Shown here piece after piece: positions 10,116-57,177 of a stretch of 64,000 bases of DNA. Each line of letters starts with the position of its first letter. Positions within the stretch are counted from its first letter, which is position 1. The notes under the pieces were generated by a model. It searched no databases. It was not told the DNA's origin and saw only the letters and a program-made list of their open reading frames with translations. The stretch lies in IMG/VR virus record IMGVR_UViG_3300010409_000003; one strand, given 5' to 3'. The position numbers were made by a program, and so were the translations under genes. Origin of the DNA: a virus. Taxonomy: Duplodnaviria > Heunggongvirae > Uroviricota > Caudoviricetes.

Positions 10116-10550
10116 ATGAAAACAGTTAAAGGTAACTTAGTATCAGCAGTCCTAAATGGTGATGTTGATATGATAATGCATGTATGCAATTGTCAAGGTG
10201 TGATGGGCAGTGGTATCGCTAAGGAAATAAAAGAGAGAATGCCAGAGGCATATAAAGTGTATACTAGTTGGCCTATAAACTTAGGTGGCTATAGTAGTAG
10301 TAAAACCGTTATAAACTTGTATGCACAAGATAACTATGGCTATGGTAAACGCCAACTAAACTATGGAGCACTAAGTTTATCACTACAAGACGCATTCGAT
10401 GATTTAGATGAATCAGGTTTCAGAGGTACAATAGGTATACCTTATAAAATGGGTTCAGATAGGGCAGGCGGTGACTGGGAGATTGTACTAGAAATAGTAG
10501 AAGAATTAGCGGAGTATTATGGTATTGAAGTTGTTATCTACAAACTATAA
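10116..10550 (+). CDS. macro-domain protein (ADP-ribose binding/processing family)
   Basis: 144 aa. VDMIMHVCNCQGVMGSGIAKEIKERMPEAY corresponds to the macro-domain block (DAIVNAAN..GGGV..AI) including the Gly-rich phosphate-binding loop. Confidence 0.55.
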   Translation: MKTVKGNLVSAVLNGDVDMIMHVCNCQGVMGSGIAKEIKERMPEAYKVYTSWPINLGGYSSSKTVINLYAQDNYGYGKRQLNYGALSLSLQDAFDDLDESGFRGTIGIPYKMGSDRAGGDWEIVLEIVEELAEYYGIEVVIYKL

Positions 10551-11599: not shown

Positions 11600-11793
11600 A
11601 TAAAGGAGGGTACACAATGAGTAAACAACAAAGTGATTTTTTAGCATCTGCTGCTGAGGAACTTAAAGTTATGATTGATTTAGCTAATGAACAATTAAAG
11701 AAAGAAGTTAGTTGTAATTCATTAGATCCACCAGATTATTATGATTATCAAACTTGTTATGAGTTGATGTGCCTATCTAGAGACCTATCCTGA
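11596..11793 (+). CDS. hypothetical protein
   Basis: 65 aa. SD AAAGGAGGGTACACAATG. Confidence 0.5.
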   Translation: MNKGGYTMSKQQSDFLASAAEELKVMIDLANEQLKKEVSCNSLDPPDYYDYQTCYELMCLSRDLS

Positions 11794-11925
11794 CACCTAA
11801 CAATACCTTTCTAAGCCTCTCAGAGCCATTCTAAGAGGTTTTCTCTCTCTTACCTAAGCTACCCTACCACTTAACTATTTAAACCTCTTAAATCGATTGT
11901 TTATAATTAATATTTACCTTAGTTC

Positions 11926-12045
11926 TAAATAGAAAAATCCTCGTAGCAAACTCTAAATTCACCTAAGAACTAAATAGAAAAATCTTCATATAGAAATACA
12001 AATTCTTTGTAAGCCTAAAGGACTAAATAGGAAAATCTTCGTAGA
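11926..12045. repeat. three direct about 22-bp iteron-like repeats CTAAATAG(A/G)AAAATC(C/T)TC(G/A)TAGA
   Basis: Copies at about 11926, 11968 and 12021 inside a 500-bp ORF-free gap. Confidence 0.6.
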
Positions 12046-12318
12046 GAATCTGAAAATCCTTTAGGTCGGTATAATTTTATATAGAATAATGACTTTTATT
12101 TAAAGCAGTAAGTAGTTAATGCACTATATAAGAAGCAATAAAATAATATTAAAAATAATTAAAATAAAACTAGACAAGGTTAATTAATGGGTATAATATA
12201 GCTACAACTTAAACAGAGAACCACAAACAAAAGGCGTTAACAATGATCAATCAAACAGAACAATCAAGCGTGTTAAGTTGGTGTATAATTATTGTGGCAG
12301 TATTACTATCGTGTTTAG

Positions 12319-12639
12319 TTGAAAATATCTAAAGGGGTGTTTAATATGATTACTAAGTTAAGCTTAGACTATTACAGACAAAGAAAAGTAAAAAATAATT
12401 TTAATGTGAAAGAAGACCAAATAAGCATACATAAGGTTATAAATTCCCAATGTGGCTACGATCCACACAATATGAAGAAGTTTGGGACTAGACGACATAA
12501 TAGCTTGTCACTTTTAAGGTCTTATTATAATCGATATACTAAAGGAGGTATAACACTAGACGAATTTATAAGATTGTTAACTACTAGGAAAGACCTTAAT
12601 AAATATTCAAAAAGATTCAAAAAAAAAAAATTAAAATAA
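12319..12639 (+). CDS. hypothetical basic protein
   Basis: 106 aa, Lys/Arg-rich, ends KRFKKKKLK. Confidence 0.45.
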   Translation: MKISKGVFNMITKLSLDYYRQRKVKNNFNVKEDQISIHKVINSQCGYDPHNMKKFGTRRHNSLSLLRSYYNRYTKGGITLDEFIRLLTTRKDLNKYSKRFKKKKLK

Positions 12640-12738: not shown

Positions 12739-13413
12739 GTGAGAAATACAATGACTACATCTATCTTTTTAAATAACAACAATGAAGCAGCAACAATTAA
12801 TATTGAAACAGGGCATCCAGAAGGGCATGATCATTTTGTAGTAAGTAAAACGTGGGAACAACTAACAGATAGTAATAAACAAGATATTGCTAGCCAATGG
12901 ATTAAAGACAATGTTTATTGTAATGTAAATCAAGTAATGGAGTTGTTATCTTGTTGTGATACACAAGAAGACTACGAAACGTACTTATCTATTGCAGAAT
13001 ACCAAGATTTTGAGTATGCAAGTACTGACCATATTAATGATTTAAGTATTGAAGAGTTGTTAGAATTAATTGAAGAATATAACCTTGATTTAGTAACATT
13101 AGAAGAGAATGAAGGTAATTCACTTAGTTGTATTACTCATCAGGCTATGACTAATTATATTATCAACAATATTAACCTAGAACAATATGGACAAGACAAC
13201 AACTTAGAGCCAGAGTATCAACAAGCTTATGAATTTTGGAACGTATCCGACCACTTTGTTAGCATGTTACAAGATACGGAGCAATGCAGTAATGATATAC
13301 TAGGTTTATCAGTTTGGGCTAGATACTGTACAGGTCAATCAATTTGTTTAGACACAGCAATACAAAAGGCAGCTTTTAAAGTGTTGAGTGATACTAGTAT
13401 TAATAACTATTAG
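12739..13413 (+). CDS. hypothetical acidic protein
   Basis: 224 aa, strongly acidic. SD AGTGAGAAATACAATG. Confidence 0.5.
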   Translation: MRNTMTTSIFLNNNNEAATINIETGHPEGHDHFVVSKTWEQLTDSNKQDIASQWIKDNVYCNVNQVMELLSCCDTQEDYETYLSIAEYQDFEYASTDHINDLSIEELLELIEEYNLDLVTLEENEGNSLSCITHQAMTNYIINNINLEQYGQDNNLEPEYQQAYEFWNVSDHFVSMLQDTEQCSNDILGLSVWARYCTGQSICLDTAIQKAAFKVLSDTSINNY

Positions 13414-13478
13414 TAAACAATATTTTTATAGCTTATTAAATGTAGTAAGCTATTAGAGATAAATTTTATTAAGTGTAA
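13414..13478 (+). terminator. repeated terminator-plus-promoter module (copy 1; second copy at 14824..14884)
   Basis: tatttttatagcttattaaatgtagtaagctattagagataaattttattaa. Hairpin ATAGCTTATTA/TAGTAAGCTAT followed by a T-rich tract. It is about 90 percent identical to 14824-14884. Confidence 0.5.
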
Positions 13479-13484
13479 ATAAAG

Positions 13485-13694
13485 GTGATGCACATGTTAA
13501 CAATTAAACAAGTAAAAGAAAATGCTTATGTATTTGCAGTAATTATGGAAAGAAACGTAAGTATTAAACAAGCAGTTTCAAGTATTAATAATATATGTAA
13601 TTTAGACATTACTGAGGGTGATTTAAAGTGTTTGATTAGGTTACGAGTACATTACTTTAATATAGATAAAATATTCTCACAATACGAGGTTTAA
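13485..13694 (+). CDS. hypothetical protein
   Basis: 69-aa ORF. Confidence 0.45.
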   Translation: MMHMLTIKQVKENAYVFAVIMERNVSIKQAVSSINNICNLDITEGDLKCLIRLRVHYFNIDKIFSQYEV

Positions 13695-14620: not shown

Positions 14621-14824
14621 ATGAATGTATTATATGTAAATCCTATCGGGGGAGTAGATATTAAAGAGAACACTAGTATACTACCACGTGTAGGTGATAG
14701 TGTAGACTTGTACTACAACCCCTATCCTAAAGTGTCCGCAGTTTTATTACACCCTACTAGTGATACTCTAGGGAAGTTAGGTCTAGTGAATATAAGTATT
14801 GATGCAATAGTTACTATTAAATAA
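14621..14824 (+). CDS. hypothetical protein
   Basis: 67-aa ORF. Confidence 0.4.
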   Translation: MNVLYVNPIGGVDIKENTSILPRVGDSVDLYYNPYPKVSAVLLHPTSDTLGKLGLVNISIDAIVTIK

Positions 14825-14884
14825 TAAACACTATTTTTATAGCTTATTAGTTTAGTAAGCTATTAGAGATAAATTTTATTAACA
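14824..14884 (+). terminator. repeated terminator-plus-promoter module (copy 2)
   Basis: ctatttttatagcttattagtttagtaagctattagagataaattttattaa, near-identical to 13414-13478. Confidence 0.5.
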
Positions 14885-15240: not shown

Positions 15241-15300
15241 TGTTGACGTTTATATATAAATCCTTATAATAGGTTTCAAGAGTTAGGAAATGAGTTCCTA
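15241..15300 (+). promoter_or_regulatory. early promoter / 5'-leader module (one of three related copies)
   Basis: TGTTGACGtttatatataaatccTTATAATaggtttcaagagttaggaaatgagttcctaac. TTGACG-17-TATAAT is followed by the hairpin GTTAGGAA-atgag-TTCCTAAC. Confidence 0.5.
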
Positions 15301-15328
15301 ACAGATTATAAATTTTAGAGGTGTTACC

Positions 15329-16279: not shown

Positions 16280-16300
16280 TTTAGAATAAATGCAAATTAG

Positions 16301-16370
16301 TTGTTGACTACTTAAATTAATCAATGTTAAGATAGCTTCAAGAGTTAGGAAACAAGTTGATAACAACACT
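16301..16370 (+). promoter_or_regulatory. early promoter / 5'-leader module (copy 2)
   Basis: gttgactacttaaattaatcaatgttaagatagcttcaagagttaggaaacaagttg, near-identical to 17021-17090. Confidence 0.5.
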
Positions 16371-16388: not shown

Positions 16389-17000
16389 ATGCAAATATTA
16401 AATAGATACACAAATGAAGTTATTATAGAAAGTTTAGAAGTTAAGACTATTAAAGAATTAGTAGAATTAGCTGTTAAAGAAGACGCAAACTTAAGAGACG
16501 CAAACTTAAGAGATGCAGACTTAAGAGATGCAGACTTAAGAGGTGCAAACTTAAGAGGTGCAAACTTAGTAAGAGCAAACTTAGTAAGAGCAAACTTAGT
16601 AAGAGCAAACTTAGAAGATGCAAACTTAGTAAGAGCAAACTTAGAAGATGCAAACTTACCTAATTTTTTAATAACCCCTGAAACAGGATCTTTTCAAGCG
16701 TACAAGAAATTAAGACATAATATAATAGTTAAGATTTTAATACCAGATGATGCTAAGAGAACTAATAGCTTAATAGGTCGTAAATGTAGGACTAATGAGT
16801 TCACTATTACAGAAGTTATGCAGAACCCTGCTAACATTAGTTTCAGTGAACACAAACCTTTACAATCTACACATTATGCATCAGAAGGATACTATCTAGG
16901 GGGTACTTTCAAAGAGCCTGCGTACGATGATGATATCCGTTTAGAGTGTACTAAAGGTTTGCATTTCTTTATGACATTAAAAGAAGCCCAAGATTGGTAA
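16389..17000 (+). CDS. pentapeptide-repeat protein (N-terminal A(N/D)LR(D/G/V) repeat array, about 18 repeats, plus a C-terminal globular domain)
   Basis: Reads [58 protein letters not shown], the hallmark of the Qnr/MfpA-type right-handed quadrilateral beta-helix. Confidence 0.7.
16483..16665 (+). repeat. tandem 15-bp DNA repeats (gcaaacttaagagat-like) encoding the pentapeptide array
   Basis: About 12 head-to-tail copies with minor variation. Confidence 0.7.
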
Positions 17001-17020
17001 TTAATTTAAAATAAAGTGTT

Positions 17021-17090
17021 GACTATCTAAATTAATCAATGTTAAGATAGCTTCAAGAGTTAGCAAACAAGTTGCTAGTAATAACTTAGG
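17021..17090 (+). promoter_or_regulatory. early promoter / 5'-leader module (copy 3)
   Basis: gttgactatctaaattaatcaatgttaagatagcttcaagagttagcaaacaagttgcta. The hairpin TAGCAA-acaag-TTGCTA shows a compensatory change relative to the 15271 copy. Confidence 0.5.
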
Positions 17091-17387: not shown

Positions 17388-17415
17388 AGCCCACTTTAAC
17401 AGTGGGCTTTTTATT
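17388..17415 (+). terminator. rho-independent terminator closing the rightward early block
   Basis: AGCCCACTttaacAGTGGGCTTTTTATT. Confidence 0.7.
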
Positions 17416-17419
17416 GCCT

Positions 17420-19233
17420 AGAATTTACCAATCAAGGTAGGCAGACAGGTACACTTAAACAGGACAAAACTAGGTAGTACACCTCAGTATAAAGACTACA
17501 GATTGCTACTGTTGTATACAAACCCTTAGTTGTTGGTATAAGGCACACTATAAGCTTGCAATACTAAGCTGTAAGAGATAGTAGGAGGCTAGTATAAGTG
17601 TTGTTATAAGGGGGTTAACTAAGTATCAACTAAGTAGCTACTGTTTCTATATGACTGTGTTGTATACTAGAGGATGCTATTTAGTGTTGTGTTCTAGTGT
17701 TATAACCTAGTATGTCAAGTATAAGTGGTAGTATAAGGAGAGACTAAACTAGTTAGTGTAATTAGTTTATACAACTTTAGTTACTACTGTTTACAGTGAC
17801 CTATTGTATATAGAATATAAGTAGTTAATATAAGATAGATAAATATAAGGTACGGTATAAGTTAGTATACTTAGTTGGTCTAACTAGGTTGCTACTGTTG
17901 TATAAGGCTTAAGATAGTTTATATAAGTTATTCTAATGATAGTTGTAAGTATTTAAGTTTTACTAATATAAGCTATTAACCTAGTAGGTGTTTAACAATT
18001 CCCAATTTCCCTTATAAACTACTATAAATTCCCCCATATAAAGCACATCCTACTCTTTACCCTCCATTTTCCCCTATTAAATACTCCCTATTTAGCCTTT
18101 TAATACTATACCCTACCCATTACCTTAGTTTTATCTAAAGTCCTCTTAGAATGGCTCCTAGTGGCTCCTACTCTATGTTGTAGCTATAAACTATACCAAT
18201 ATAAACTTGTCCTATAAGGGGGTAATATAAGTTGAGGCTAATTAGGAGGTGAACTAGGCATAAATATAAGTTTTGTACTATAAGCTTGTATAATATAAAT
18301 AAGCCAATATAAGGCTATTAAATAGGAAAGTGTACCTAGGGTATAGCTAACTAGTTTAAGTGGCTTAGAATGGCTAATATAAGCTTAGAATAGTATAAGT
18401 AGGTTAAGTATAAGAGGTATAATATAAGAGGGCTATACTGATATTTTAGAATTACTAGAGGAATATAAAGAGGGGGAGTGGAGTGGTTAAACACCTCAAT
18501 TATAAAATACCTTAAATATAACTAAAGGTAGTCTACTCTTCCCTCAATACAACAGTAGCAACCTTAGTAGTCAACTAGTTAGTATAATATAAATTACAAT
18601 TATAAATTAGTCACTTAAGTCTACCTACCATAGTAGTCCTCTATAAACTTGCATCTATAAATCTAACACTATTTACATACAACAGTAGCAACTAAGGTAG
18701 TAAACTATAGTAGTCAATCTGTCATGCTAACAGAGTATAATCAGAGACAGTCTATAAGAAGTTTATCTTAATTCTAGTATACAATTTGTTACCTATAACG
18801 TATCATTTTGTCTACCTAATTAGTGTTGTAATAGTTCGGAACGAACAGTGGCAAATTGAGGCTATAAATATAAAATATTACCTCTATAAACTTGTTCATC
18901 ATGTCTTGATATTTTAGTATATAAGCTGTATTAATAATCTTATGAAAACAGGCTGTTCATATACAAATTTAGTTGAAATGGATATTAACTGATATTTGTA
19001 CTATATGTCTATTAAGAATAGTGGGTAAGAATACACTGATATTTTAGTATATAAGAATGGCTCTATAAGGCTTTATATCTAGGTAGGCATACATTTGTAT
19101 GTATAATTGATTTAAGTTGATTAGAGAGCTTCTGAGGAGGTTTGAGGGTATATTTGAAGGTAATTTATCTATAAACAGGAAAGTATATAAATAGATATAG
19201 AAATTGGGCATTATTGAATAGAGGGTATAAGAA
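17420..19233. other. 1.8-kb ORF-free repeat-dense region (candidate replication origin, genome terminus or ncRNA locus)
   Basis: No ORF of 60 aa or more on either strand. The iteron GTTGCTACTGTTGTAT occurs at about 17503 and 17890 (plus) and 18550 and 18682 (minus). There are about 20 (A)ATATAAG(G) elements between 17547 and 18430. The stretch 18000-18130 has almost no G and 18180-18480 has almost no C. CTGATATTTTAGTATATAAG occurs three times (18441, 18907, 19036). Confidence 0.6.
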
Positions 19234-26530: not shown

Positions 26531-27610
26531 TTAAATTAAGTTTTCTAGTGTAGTTAACATTTCTTGGTAAGCCCCTGCCAAGTCAGCATTCATATTGTAT
26601 TCATTAGTTTCAAAGAAGTCAACAAGAATATCCATAGGTTTTACATTATTTATGTAATCACTAGGTTGTTTGTAGTTGTCAGCTTGACGTATAACCGCTA
26701 TTAATGACTCATTACTAATGTACTTAGCTTTATAACCTGAGCGAATAACCTCATGATATTCATCGTGGTCGTCTGTAACTATAGTATCTTCTTCTAAGTC
26801 TTCGTACACTTTAGCTATTGCCTTATTAGCTAATTCTTTACTAGGTGTGTTATAGTCTCCTAGATAAGTAGTATCATTGTTATTACTAGTTAAAGCTGAG
26901 ACTACTATATCCAAATTCTCATCTTCATTAACATACTTCCATAATTCTTTAGTTTGCCATGATATATCGAAAGTGCTTACTGTTTTTCTATCTCTATCTA
27001 ATTTAAGCACATCAGTGTTGAAGTTATAACCATAGTCAAAGGTCTTATCCTCACATACCCACACTCCTCCACAGAATATCTGACCTTTCATATTAGAGTC
27101 TTTAAGTATATCACCATTCGGTGTTTCTATTAAGTCTAGGTTATCATGGAAGCATAAGTTTTTAGCTCTAACTTCTTCTATCACATCCTCAGAGAGCTTA
27201 CTTAACTCAAAGAGAACTTCATTGTCATATTCATCTTCATATTTTTCTATACTTAAATGTAAACAATCTATACCAAAAATCTGTGAGGTGGCTATATAAG
27301 GTGTCCACATATCATTACCATTAAATATATTACAATTTGTATTCTCTCTTGCAAGTATCAACAATGCTAATTTCAAACCTTCGTTGAATTGTCCTATCGT
27401 ATCTGTATCTTCTGTCTTACTACCACTGCCTAATAGTAAGTGCTCAATTGGTATAGCACCACTAGTAGTTAAGATACTTAGTGTGTCACCTTGGATAGTA
27501 ACCTTAGCACTCCCTGTATCCAATGCATTTGCAATTAGTTCTCTTATAGCATCTACTATTGTCCACTGTGGTACATAGTTTTTTGCTAATGATAATTCTA
27601 TAGTTCTCAT
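26531..27610 (-). CDS. GHKL-superfamily ATPase-like protein (Bergerat fold, Hsp90/MutL/MORC-like N-terminal domain)
   Basis: 359 aa. AIRELIANALDTGS is an N-box (E-x3-N-x2-D). IGQFNEGLKLA resembles the Hsp90/MutL G2-box region IGQFGVGFYS. The C-terminal half is unassigned. Confidence 0.5.
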   Translation of the reverse strand: MRTIELSLAKNYVPQWTIVDAIRELIANALDTGSAKVTIQGDTLSILTTSGAIPIEHLLLGSGSKTEDTDTIGQFNEGLKLALLILARENTNCNIFNGNDMWTPYIATSQIFGIDCLHLSIEKYEDEYDNEVLFELSKLSEDVIEEVRAKNLCFHDNLDLIETPNGDILKDSNMKGQIFCGGVWVCEDKTFDYGYNFNTDVLKLDRDRKTVSTFDISWQTKELWKYVNEDENLDIVVSALTSNNNDTTYLGDYNTPSKELANKAIAKVYEDLEEDTIVTDDHDEYHEVIRSGYKAKYISNESLIAVIRQADNYKQPSDYINNVKPMDILVDFFETNEYNMNADLAGAYQEMLTTLENLI

Positions 27611-28443
27611 TCTTTACCTCCTAAATAAACTGCCACAACTTCTTCAACTTTCTTTCTACCACCACCGTCACATGAGATAGTTCTTTGAACTTCAAAAGTA
27701 TACAACTCATCTGCATCTTTGTAAAGCTCTTTTGTGAAATCTGTCCAATGATTACTAATAATAGATGTATGTTTACTATTTTTAGATAATTCTTTCAACT
27801 TAATGTGGTCTTCTTTATTAAAACCTTTAACTGAATATTTAAATTCTGTGGTCAAAGGTACATATGGCGAGTCAGAATATATAAGACAGTTATCTAATTC
27901 TTCGACATGTTCAAATACTTCCTCGTAACTCTTACACATTAAAGCTGTGTTATTCTTATGTCGTTTATGTAATAAGTTGATACTGTCTGTGGGTATGTTA
28001 GGTAAATTCTTTTTAACATTCCCTATTGGTACATTGAATTCACCTTTTAGATTATACCTAGCCAACCCATTGTACCCAAATTTATTAAGATATTGAAATA
28101 TAGCACATTTAGTAAGAGTTCCGAGGTCTTCTTGATTAAAAGACCTACGTAACTCATAGTAATCATTATACCCACTATTAAAAAGTACCTTACAAATATT
28201 TATATAGTGTGACACGTCCTCTGTTTTGACTAAAAGTTTGTAGGTATTAATTAAGTCTTCATTTATATCATTCCAAATGTACTTATCTGTGTCAAAGTTT
28301 AGTGATATATTAGCTGCACCTATAAACGGCTCTACTAAGGTTCTCTGCTTATGTTTCTCTAATATAGGTAATACATGTTTTAGTGCCTTACCTTTGCCTC
28401 CTGCCCATTTGAATAAGCTCTTATTATATTTAGTGTTAGTCAT
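27607..28443 (-). CDS. dam: DNA adenine methyltransferase (Dam-like, N6-adenine, D12 class)
   Basis: 278 aa. N-terminal LFKWAGGKGK (SAM-binding motif) and catalytic DPPY-type motif SDSPY. It overlaps the upstream GHKL gene by 4 nt. Confidence 0.8.
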   Translation of the reverse strand: MTNTKYNKSLFKWAGGKGKALKHVLPILEKHKQRTLVEPFIGAANISLNFDTDKYIWNDINEDLINTYKLLVKTEDVSHYINICKVLFNSGYNDYYELRRSFNQEDLGTLTKCAIFQYLNKFGYNGLARYNLKGEFNVPIGNVKKNLPNIPTDSINLLHKRHKNNTALMCKSYEEVFEHVEELDNCLIYSDSPYVPLTTEFKYSVKGFNKEDHIKLKELSKNSKHTSIISNHWTDFTKELYKDADELYTFEVQRTISCDGGGRKKVEEVVAVYLGGKE

Positions 28444-54843: not shown

Positions 54844-57177
54844 ATGTCAGGATTTTCAATAGCAGACTTCTTTGCTCAGTTAAGTATAAAAGCTGATACT
54901 AAAGAAGTTAAGAAAATAGAAGACTCATTGAATAAGATTAATAAATCTTTGAAGATGATAGGAGTTACTAGTGTAGCTCAAGCTAAGAAAGTAGATACTG
55001 TTTTTAAAGGGGAAGCCTTACGTAGACAACACTTACAAGTGAAAGGTCTACATGATGAACTAGAAAAAATGGGTAGCTCTTTAGTTGGCTTTAAGAACAG
55101 ACTAGTTGGTATCGATAAGCAATCTGAATTCGTTAAGATTAAGAATGACATTAAAGAAGCTAAACTAGAAGCTCAACGGTTTAAGAATGAACTTAAACTA
55201 AAGCATAACACTAATAGCATACTAGGTAAAGATAACATCTTTAAGAAGCCGGATGCTTTTAATGGTGCTAATGATAAAGGTAATAATGCTACTAGGATGT
55301 TCCAAGGAGGCGATGACTTCTGGGAAAGATCTGATAAAGGTAGACGTTTACTACATGACCTCAGTGAAGACCAAGTTGACCAATTAAGAGCATTAGCTGC
55401 CGAACAAGTTAAGATGAAGAAGTCGGTAACTGACGCTAATTTAGCTTTAAATACACAAGCTAAGAAGTTTAGGAAAATCAACGATACTATCCCTAAAGTT
55501 AATGCACAAATAACCTCATTAACTAGAGCACAGAATAGGCTAAAAGAATCAGCTAGGCAACTTGCATTATCAATGGTAGGTGCTTTCGCGGTATTCGAAG
55601 GTGTTAAGAGTATCAACAGAGTTGGTCAAGACTTTGAAGGTATGGAAGCTGCAATGTTGGCTTCTTCAGGTAGTTCTAAGTTAGCAGCTAAAGACTTAGC
55701 TTTTGTAGATGAACAAGCTGTACGATTAGGTTTAGACCTACGAGAGACCACAGATGCTTACTCTAAGTTGCAATTTGCAGCTAAAGGTAAAATGAGTAAA
55801 GGACAAACTAAAGAATTATTTACAGGTTTTAGTGAGTTTGCTACAGCCTTGAAAGTTAGTCCAGAACAACAGAAATCAGGGTTAAGAGCCTTGCAACAAA
55901 TGCTCAATAAAACTACGGTTATGAGCGAAGAATTAAAACAACAACTCGCTTAATGTTGGGCGCTTAGGGTAGGAAACTCCCTTAGAAGAATCTATTTAAT
56001 TGCTGGGACAACTTGTTAAGCTTAGTATACAATACTACATAGTGATATAGTAGCGACCTGTAAAAATTACTAGGATAGAGTTAATCAGCCTCCAATCTCC
56101 TTTAGAGGAGCAGGATCAACGACTAGAGGGCAACCTCGTACACTACAAGCTATTGGTAGTGGAAACAATAGACACCTAAACAAGTGATGTTGTAGGTGAT
56201 GATATAGTCTATTCTTACATGAGAATGTAAGCAGTTCATAAGGTTACTACCTTTGAGAACGAGTAACTTAGTAGCGTAAGTTATTGAATGCTAAGGAACA
56301 AGTACCCGGAAGTATACAAATATTCGCCAACGCTTTAAATGTTTCTGAAAAAGAATTATTTAAAATGATGGAACAAGGTACAATAGTATCCTCAGAGGTA
56401 CTACCTAAAGTAGCTAAAGAATTTGCCAAAGCCGCTAGAAGCGGTGGTGCATTAGCGGAAGCTTTGAATACAGTTAGGGTACAACAAGGTAGATTTCTAA
56501 CAGATACACAGAAAGCACAGAATACTATATTCACTAATGGTTTTGGAGAGGGGCTAGCTTCTGCTTACAAAACATTAAGTCAAGTATTGAAAGACTTAGA
56601 ACCAGTGTTGAAAGGTATAGGTCAAGGTTTTGGATTCTTATTCAGAACTTTAGCCGCAGGTATTAATATGATAACTGCACCTCTAAGATCTATAAAATTA
56701 CTTACAGACTTACTAATAGACTTAGATGAAGTGTCTAATACTTTCGCAGAGAATACCGTACCTAGAATGGTAGCCGCAGGTGCTTTATTGTTAACTGCTT
56801 GGGGGAGAGTACTAGCTAAGTTTTTAGCAGTAAAAGCAGTACTAGAGGAATTAGTAGCTCTTAGTTCTAAGAATATAGTAGGCCAAGTAGAACGTGATAT
56901 AGGAAGGGACATAGGTTTTGACTTAGGTGTAGGTGAAAGCACTAGGAGTGGTGATAACCCTTCTCTCAATAAAGAAGCCACTAGCTTTGATAATTACCTT
57001 CAATTTTATAACAGCGAAGATAGGTTTAGTGCTATGGATTGGTTAAAGGATAATGTACTAAATAGTATGGGTTCGGAGATAGTAATAAATCAACAACCTA
57101 CTATAGATGAATACGGCAGTGTCCATATTGAGAATACTGTACAACGTTCTATAGTCAATGGTCAAGCTCAGAGGTAA
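54844..57177 (+). CDS. tape measure protein, two exons (54844..55953 and about 56275..57177) separated by a putative group I intron
   Basis: Both ORFs are in the same reading frame. The first is Lys/Gln/Ala-rich helical. The second begins (L)NAKEQ...VSEKELFKMMEQGTIVSSEVLPKVAKEFAKAA, typical of a tape-measure interior. Confidence 0.6.
55954..56274 (+). ncRNA. putative ORF-less group I self-splicing intron in the tape-measure gene
   Basis: It starts UAAUGUUGGGCG immediately after an exon-terminal U (compare the T4 td intron, which starts UAAUUGAGGCC). The IGS GGCG can pair with exon CGCU. R-like UCAACGACUAGAGGG is at 56119. S-like GAUAUAGUCUAU is at 56204. It ends in G before an in-frame continuation. 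The 3' boundary is 56274 or 56280. Confidence 0.5.

Follow-up and report, generated by a model that had tools for sequence, protein, structure and literature searches.

A length-variable pentapeptide-repeat helix joined to a conserved DUF5758 domain in a phage protein

Some pentapeptide-repeat proteins are associated with the mimicry of DNA, and the presence of such repeats in a phage gene raises the question of whether the product imitates DNA in order to bind host enzymes, or whether the repeats serve some other purpose. The gene considered here lies within a stretch of 64,000 nucleotides of a tailed virus (IMG/VR record IMGVR_UViG_3300010409_000003), the whole of which is referred to below as the window. 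A first-pass annotation had read it as an early, individually promoted gene for a candidate B-DNA mimic of the Qnr, MfpA or AlbG type, directed against DNA-targeting enzymes of the host. The gene called at 16389-17000 is real and was correctly placed, and an identical protein (P0001) is present on a 90.9-kb JGI contig. The parts of the gene, all on the + strand, are as follows.

16389..17000, +, pentapeptide-repeat/DUF5758 coding sequence; complete ORF with an ATG start, 203 aa plus stop
16389..16484, +, N-terminal cap, aa 1-32; beta-hairpin 2-14 and helix 21-30, an AlphaFold2 (AF2) block with pLDDT 88-90
16485..16664, +, twelve in-register 15-bp units encoding 12 pentapeptides, aa 33-92
16485..16664, +, the beta-helix formed by these repeats, aa 33-92; three coils, right-handed quadrilateral, four repeats per coil
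16665..16997, +, DUF5758 domain, aa 93-203, beta-rich (Pfam, alignments and domain-only AF2 model)

The repeats are a feature of the DNA as well as of the protein. Tandem Repeats Finder places an array at 16480-16658 (period 15, 11.9 copies, 88% matches, score 175) and, together with an in-register repeat search, bears out the 15-bp DNA repeats originally reported at 16483-16665. The accompanying figure of about 18 pentapeptides was an overcount, as translation gives exactly 12, beginning with two successive copies of ANLRD. Within the array, alanine is encoded by GCA at 12 of 12 positions (genome frequency of GCA 0.38), asparagine by AAC at 10 of 11 (0.34), leucine by TTA at 12 of 12 (0.51) and arginine by AGA at nine of nine (0.43), whereas codons are mixed in the same gene outside the array. 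This uniformity exceeds the codon bias of the genome, and the array is therefore a DNA-level repeat and not a protein-level repeat only. An antisense ORF at 16474-16653, rich in leucine and serine, is a mirror of the array and was rejected as a gene. No second DUF5758 or pentapeptide gene was found within the window.

The protein consists of three parts. Both of its recognisable domains score well above their Pfam cut-offs: the repeats match Pentapeptide PF00805 (65.5 bits, cut-off 20.2), and aa 96-200 match DUF5758 PF19062 (69.2 bits, cut-off 26.9, E 3.5e-19) across model positions 5-105 of 105. The C-terminal part had been described as a domain of about 95 aa with no recognisable motif; since DUF5758 is matched above its curated cut-off, that description is wrong, and the domain, of about 108-111 aa, is in fact the most conserved part of the family. 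A full-length AF2 model, built on an alignment of 34 sequences, is confident (mean pLDDT 88.6), as is a domain-only model of DUF5758 (pLDDT 91.0, pTM 0.84). In the full-length model the beta-helix has one bridge residue per five positions from 38 to 88, and structure comparison shows that it matches solved pentapeptide-repeat proteins, so that the quadrilateral beta-helix originally proposed is confidently predicted. The N-terminal cap closes the start of the helix, and alignment with IMG/VR relatives indicates that its motif is common to many other phage pentapeptide-repeat proteins. This three-part architecture and the family membership, taken by themselves, are close to certain. Two further matches, a weak one to Pfam Peptidase_A3B (E 0.2) and one to a PHROG ‘tail fiber’ family (E 0.0036) that covers the repeats only, were discarded as noise.

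A search of 5.8 billion proteins returned 4,247 matches, and essentially all of those listed combine pentapeptide repeats with DUF5758. When the C-terminal domain alone was used as the query, 2,040 clusters at 50% identity were obtained; of 146 newly returned representatives (among 150 listed), approximately 89% carry between 3 and 31 N-terminal pentapeptides, and most of the remainder are truncated or show only two, or degenerate, repeats. Among annotated phages, the family occurs in 152 mycobacteriophage records, those listed including Cjw1 gp59 and its relatives, and also, as checked with Pfam, in Synechococcus phages B3 and B23, a Ralstonia autographivirus, and phages of Rhizobium, Caulobacter and Thiohalocapsa. 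Overall, members are carried by phages of Actinomycetota, Pseudomonadota, Bacillota, Bacteroidota and cyanobacteria, and when a single genome from each bacterial species was scanned for the motif, 71 loci over many phyla were located. By sequence comparison, then, the family is found in unrelated phages and in scattered bacterial genomes, and the window gene is a typical representative of a family that is large and already catalogued. Cjw1 gp59, the cluster E proteins gp53-61, Synechococcus phage B3 gp187 and Ralstonia phage BOESR1 gene 9 share its architecture of repeats with a C-terminal DUF5758, are 34-50% identical to it over aa 57-203 and, like it, occupy accessory or early positions; the window copy is shorter, with 12 repeats and 203 aa compared with 270-306 aa. 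These homologues have no assigned function and the comparison therefore names a family and not a mechanism. The PHROG families of both halves of the protein are labelled ‘unknown function’, and a search of a literature library found no paper that mentions DUF5758.

Two of the bacterial loci deserve mention. A contig from a Lachnospira MAG (CAMZGB010000001.1, locus L103) carries, at about 1000-5750, five tandem paralogues with degenerate repeats and DUF5758, an expansion that recalls the paralogue families of giant viruses. In an Alistipes MAG (locus L128), an ORF starting at 3392 encodes a 288-aa fusion of a PHROG 2072 domain (E 8e-36) with the cap, three repeats and DUF5758. A SLOG-type nucleotide-binding identity was considered for the N-terminal domain of this fusion and rejected, as Pfam and the PDB gave no match and PHROG 2072 (‘unknown function’) was the sole match.

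The length of such arrays changes quickly, by one repeat at a time, and a capacity for change had been proposed from the near-identity of the DNA units. A megablast search of 50,697 phage records found no near-identical genome of the window phage, and repeat number was therefore compared in the closest metagenomic relatives. In a gut-phage lineage sampled as 73 proteins from the best matches, median identity is 100% in the N-terminal cap and 98% in the C-terminal domain; the repeat region nevertheless occurs in 11 lengths between 108 and 158 aa, always separated by a multiple of five residues. Closest to the window protein is P0003 (contig L086), whose C-terminal domain is 75% identical and which has eight repeats compared with 12; copy number across the family ranges from 2 to 31. 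A precedent exists in phages L and ST64T (identity >99.9%), between which a 15-bp deletion has cost orf232 of the early-left operon one pentapeptide (bioRxiv 10.1101/2020.10.05.325894). The P22-like orf232 resembles the window gene in carrying a repeat module of the same type in an early or accessory position, but its C-terminal domain is unrelated and has no DUF5758 match. Taken with the codon uniformity of the array, these comparisons give slippage-driven variation in length good support. Since one repeat more or less rotates the C-terminal domain through a quarter turn with respect to the cap, no fixed end-to-end geometry is maintained.

Frameshifts within the array are a separate matter. 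In the closest relative (L086, 1901-2457, Logan assembly SRR33375181), one 14-nt unit puts the N-terminal cap and the C-terminal domain in different frames. The cause is either real decay, leaving a pseudogene or an off-state, or a fault in the assembly. Repeats in another frame were found for about 5 of 122 C-domain ORFs, in addition to this contig. Phase variation by frameshift was considered and set aside, as these cases are too few and are indistinguishable from assembly error.

Conservation is concentrated at the other end of the protein. In three alignments, of 34, 59 and 35 sequences, all invariant positions outside the repeats fall within DUF5758. Those invariant in the 59-sequence alignment are K106, R124, K132, R134, Y168, C187, G190 and H192; nearly invariant are P97, G100, F102, A122, R131, C133, G171, D182, E186 and the HFF...EA segment. 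The conserved motifs of the domain are KK, IPxDAKRT, GRKCR, YxVG and DDDIRxECTxGIHFF, and the window protein has every invariant residue of the family. Judged from these alignments, selection acts on the C-terminal domain while the length of the helix varies freely. The N-terminal module is also found with other partners. IMG/VR relatives with a cap identical in type to that of the window protein, and with a variable C-terminal domain, link cap and repeats, in other phages, to no fewer than five further types of C-terminal domain. One of these is weakly DUF7666-like (E 0.017, below the cut-off) and shares with DUF5758 a Y-x-[IV]-G...D-x-D...C-x-x-G-I motif (hhalign probability 48%). Such sequence relationships suggest a modular protein, in which the cap-repeat module combines with exchangeable C-terminal domains.

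No solved structural relative of DUF5758 was found, and no known enzyme matches it in fold or sequence. Foldseek comparison with predicted viral structures gave 16 matches at E <= 1e-3, with TM scores of 0.55-0.80 normalised to the query. They include a phage protein annotated ‘HEAT repeat’, several paralogues of Acidovorax phage ACP17 and many giant-virus proteins, among them MORN-repeat, pentapeptide-repeat and RING-finger proteins of Klosneuvirinae and Mimivirus L87 and L812, the giant-virus links being moderate (E 2e-6 to 1e-3). These matches between predicted structures suggest that the head domain may be used on different scaffolds across viruses. A much more ambitious reading would make DUF5758 a new fold and a pan-viral effector head on interchangeable solenoids (pentapeptide in phages, MORN or other in giant viruses), with the array as a contingency-type locus in which 15-bp slippage retunes length and surface, and sometimes shifts the frame to off, in the course of an arms race against some target or sensor of the host; this is thought rather unlikely.

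The description of the gene as early and individually promoted stood in part. A promoter of its own is plausible, on the basis of the consensus and an enriched extended pattern, while ‘early’ is a deduction from gene position. The two elements before the gene are as follows.

16304..16333, +, sigma-70-like promoter with an extended -10 (TTGACT, 18-nt spacer, TG-n-TAAGAT), by consensus only
16337..16365, +, degenerate copy of the 29-nt 5'-leader element TTCAAGAGTTAGGAAAYRAGTTSCTAACA (repeat family D3)

The promoter-like site is 55 nt upstream of the gene and lies within a 76-nt element (16287-16362) that is duplicated, at 87% identity, before the next gene (17002-17077). The extended pattern GTTGACW-N15-19-TANNAT occurs six times in the window compared with 0.8 expected, although promoter-like matches taken together are no more frequent in the region than chance predicts (71 observed, 71.5 expected). 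The leader element follows three consecutive promoters; its other copies, at 15275-15303 and 17052-17080 (+), each have a 7-8 bp hairpin. Fold z-scores are weak, at -0.15 for 16337-16365 and -0.74 and -1.85 for the other copies. The element may be a site for RNA stability or for a regulator. Further upstream, an intergenic cassette at 13389-13472 is repeated 1.4 kb away at 14800-14882 (+), before the ORFs at 13485 and 14885 (families D4 and D10), and 30 nt of it (TAGTAAGCTATTAGAGATAAATTTTATTAA) match perfectly (100%) between the two copies. In an ORF-free gap of the early block at 11793-12319, a unit of 45 nt is duplicated in tandem at 11912-12001 (+; 73% identity, family D7).

About 35 small ORFs, read as promoter-bearing accessory genes, occupy the + strand from 6.8 to 17.4 kb; the pentapeptide gene is the last but one of them, and a terminator-like hairpin at 17388-17408 follows the final ORF of the block. 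The layout is similar in a related phage contig of 77.8 kb, where the homologue is last in the small-ORF block; Cjw1 gp59 is in an operon divergent from the repressor and the Ralstonia autographivirus homologue is upstream of the RNA polymerase gene. To look for a conserved partner gene, the ORFs surrounding the gene at 45 loci and in the window were compared all against all by BLAST; the synteny that appeared was lineage-specific only, and none of it was shared with the window. The window phage is AT-rich (about 32% GC) and encodes a Toprim/AAA primase-helicase, a PIF1-like helicase, an RNA ligase, a Dam-type methyltransferase, a lysozyme and a large terminase, which is distant kin of terminases of Pseudoalteromonas, Acinetobacter, Klebsiella and Aeromonas phages.

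Several other features of the window deserve description in their own right. The large terminase ORF (42692-45088, +) encodes 798 aa, which the terminases of Pseudoalteromonas HM1 and Acinetobacter TaPaz match from end to end, whereas those of Klebsiella and Aeromonas phages, the Aeromonas ones being annotated in two pieces, align to aa 325-790 only; about 320 aa at the N-terminus of the window terminase are therefore an extension. At 55942-56231 (+) lies a group I catalytic intron (Rfam RF00028), matched at full model length and with 77.7 bits against a gathering score of 50. It lies between the ORF 54844-55953 and the TTG-started ORF 56284-57177, which are therefore probably exons of one structural-region gene. 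A D12-class N6-adenine DNA methyltransferase at 27607-28443 (-; Pfam E 2.7e-44) could provide the window phage with a separate, conventional route of restriction evasion. In the early block, a 144-aa ORF at 10116-10550 (+) has a sub-threshold Macro-domain match (E 0.0037, 17.6 bits against a cut-off of 22), and is a possible ADP-ribose-binding or -hydrolysing accessory protein. Beyond the small-gene block, about 1.6 kb (17400-19000) between convergent + and - gene blocks is almost free of ORFs. It contains short tandem units of the form (A/T)ATAAGA..ATA at 17814-17849, 17921-17976 and 18392-18431 and a 31-nt direct repeat at 18547/18677, and could be an origin or regulatory region.

The idea that the beta-helix imitates B-DNA, and so blocks or protects a DNA enzyme (gyrase or another topoisomerase, a restriction enzyme or other nuclease), draws mainly on the fold, which elsewhere serves also as a protein-binding scaffold. 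Qnr, MfpA and AlbG have 8-9 coils per monomer and a C-terminal dimerisation helix, forming a rod of DNA-like length, and Qnr and MfpA carry loops A and B. Compared with these proteins and McbG, the window protein has three coils and is without loops A and B; in place of the dimerisation helix of the Qnr/MfpA type, the globular, beta-rich DUF5758 domain of about 110 aa follows the coils directly. Structure prediction, proposed at the outset as a check on the dimensions and charge of the helix, does yield a beta-helix, but one of only about 15 Å, equal to 4-5 bp of DNA. The net charge of the repeat region is 0 (9 Arg and 9 Asp/Glu; a sequence-level charge, not a surface potential), with -1, +4 and -3 on the successive coils; the pI of the whole protein is 5.9. 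At the level of sequence charge, this is unlike the strongly acidic surface of anti-restriction DNA mimics of the Ocr, ArdA and Arn type, and a middle coil of +4 and nine surface arginines fit poorly with mimicry, even though the family-median net charge of the N-terminal part is slightly negative (-3). The NCBIfam models for Qnr (NF033086) and MfpA (NF000349) score 17.3 and 21.2 bits, far below their cut-offs of 240 and 360. The position of the gene is of the kind where Ocr-type mimics sit, as is that of the Ralstonia autographivirus homologue upstream of the RNA polymerase gene. Nevertheless, the invariant residues are all outside the helix, and single-repeat changes inside near-identical lineages leave no geometry for a mimic to conserve. 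On coil count, charge, HMM scores, the absent dimerisation helix and the unconstrained copy number, the Qnr-like reading is not upheld and DNA mimicry is therefore considered improbable.

The location of the invariant residues raises the alternative of an enzyme with a targeting solenoid, in which DUF5758 would be catalytic through Cys187/His192, Glu186 and Tyr168 and would modify a host protein or nucleotide, while the helix selects the substrate. C187 and H192, together with four Lys/Arg and one Tyr, are invariant; E186, which shares the motif E-C-x-x-G-[IL]-H-F-F with C187 and H192, is nearly so, and the DUF7666-like C-domain type has a related motif. That second domain type, however, has Asn at the His position; moreover, Cys and His are five residues apart on a loop and a strand, unlike known Cys-His hydrolase folds, and could equally be structural or metal ligands. 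With known enzymes giving no match to the domain, a catalytic role of this kind is doubtful. The Salmonella effector SopA, a beta-helix with a HECT-like ligase, follows the same logic, but its likeness to the window protein is one of layout only, as DUF5758, at ~110 aa, has no similarity to HECT domains. A phage-borne defence or superinfection-exclusion gene, acting against competing phages and not against host immunity, has also been considered. Many homologues are in temperate phages or in prophage-like bacterial regions, the different pentapeptide-repeat gene orf232 lies between ral and gene 17 in the P22-like early-left operon, and the Hailong defence effector HalA contains pentapeptide repeats (PMC13586616). 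The gene is nonetheless present in apparently lytic phages (the window phage and the Ralstonia autographivirus), and the Cjw1 homologue is on the strand of the lytic operon and not beside the repressor. A search of the protein against PADLOC-DB 2.0 gave 0 families at E <= 0.1, and the gene is therefore not recognisable as one of the known defence genes. An exclusion role is accordingly held to be very improbable.

The reading favoured here, to which a probability of about 0.55 is given as a whole, including its division of labour, is that the gene encodes a soluble and host-directed accessory phage protein, probably early, in which a variable solenoid scaffold carries a conserved ligand-binding or catalytic head. 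The promoter-like sequence and gene position would allow early synthesis from a host-type promoter of its own. The protein would then act by binding a host component, not by copying DNA. Its beta-helix would serve as a rigid and fast-evolving scaffold, spacer or recognition surface, and DUF5758 would be the working end, where the invariant Lys/Arg cluster and the Cys-His-Tyr group may bind an anionic ligand or nucleic acid, or mediate catalysis. Host takeover or counter-defence would be the likely role of such a protein.

The family is very common, with thousands of sequences and with fold relatives in giant viruses, and it is the family as such that is of interest, the window copy being ordinary. 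Pentapeptide repeats alone do not justify the assumption of DNA mimicry. A functional study of any one member would annotate thousands of genes and would reveal the use to which a fast length-changing solenoid is put.
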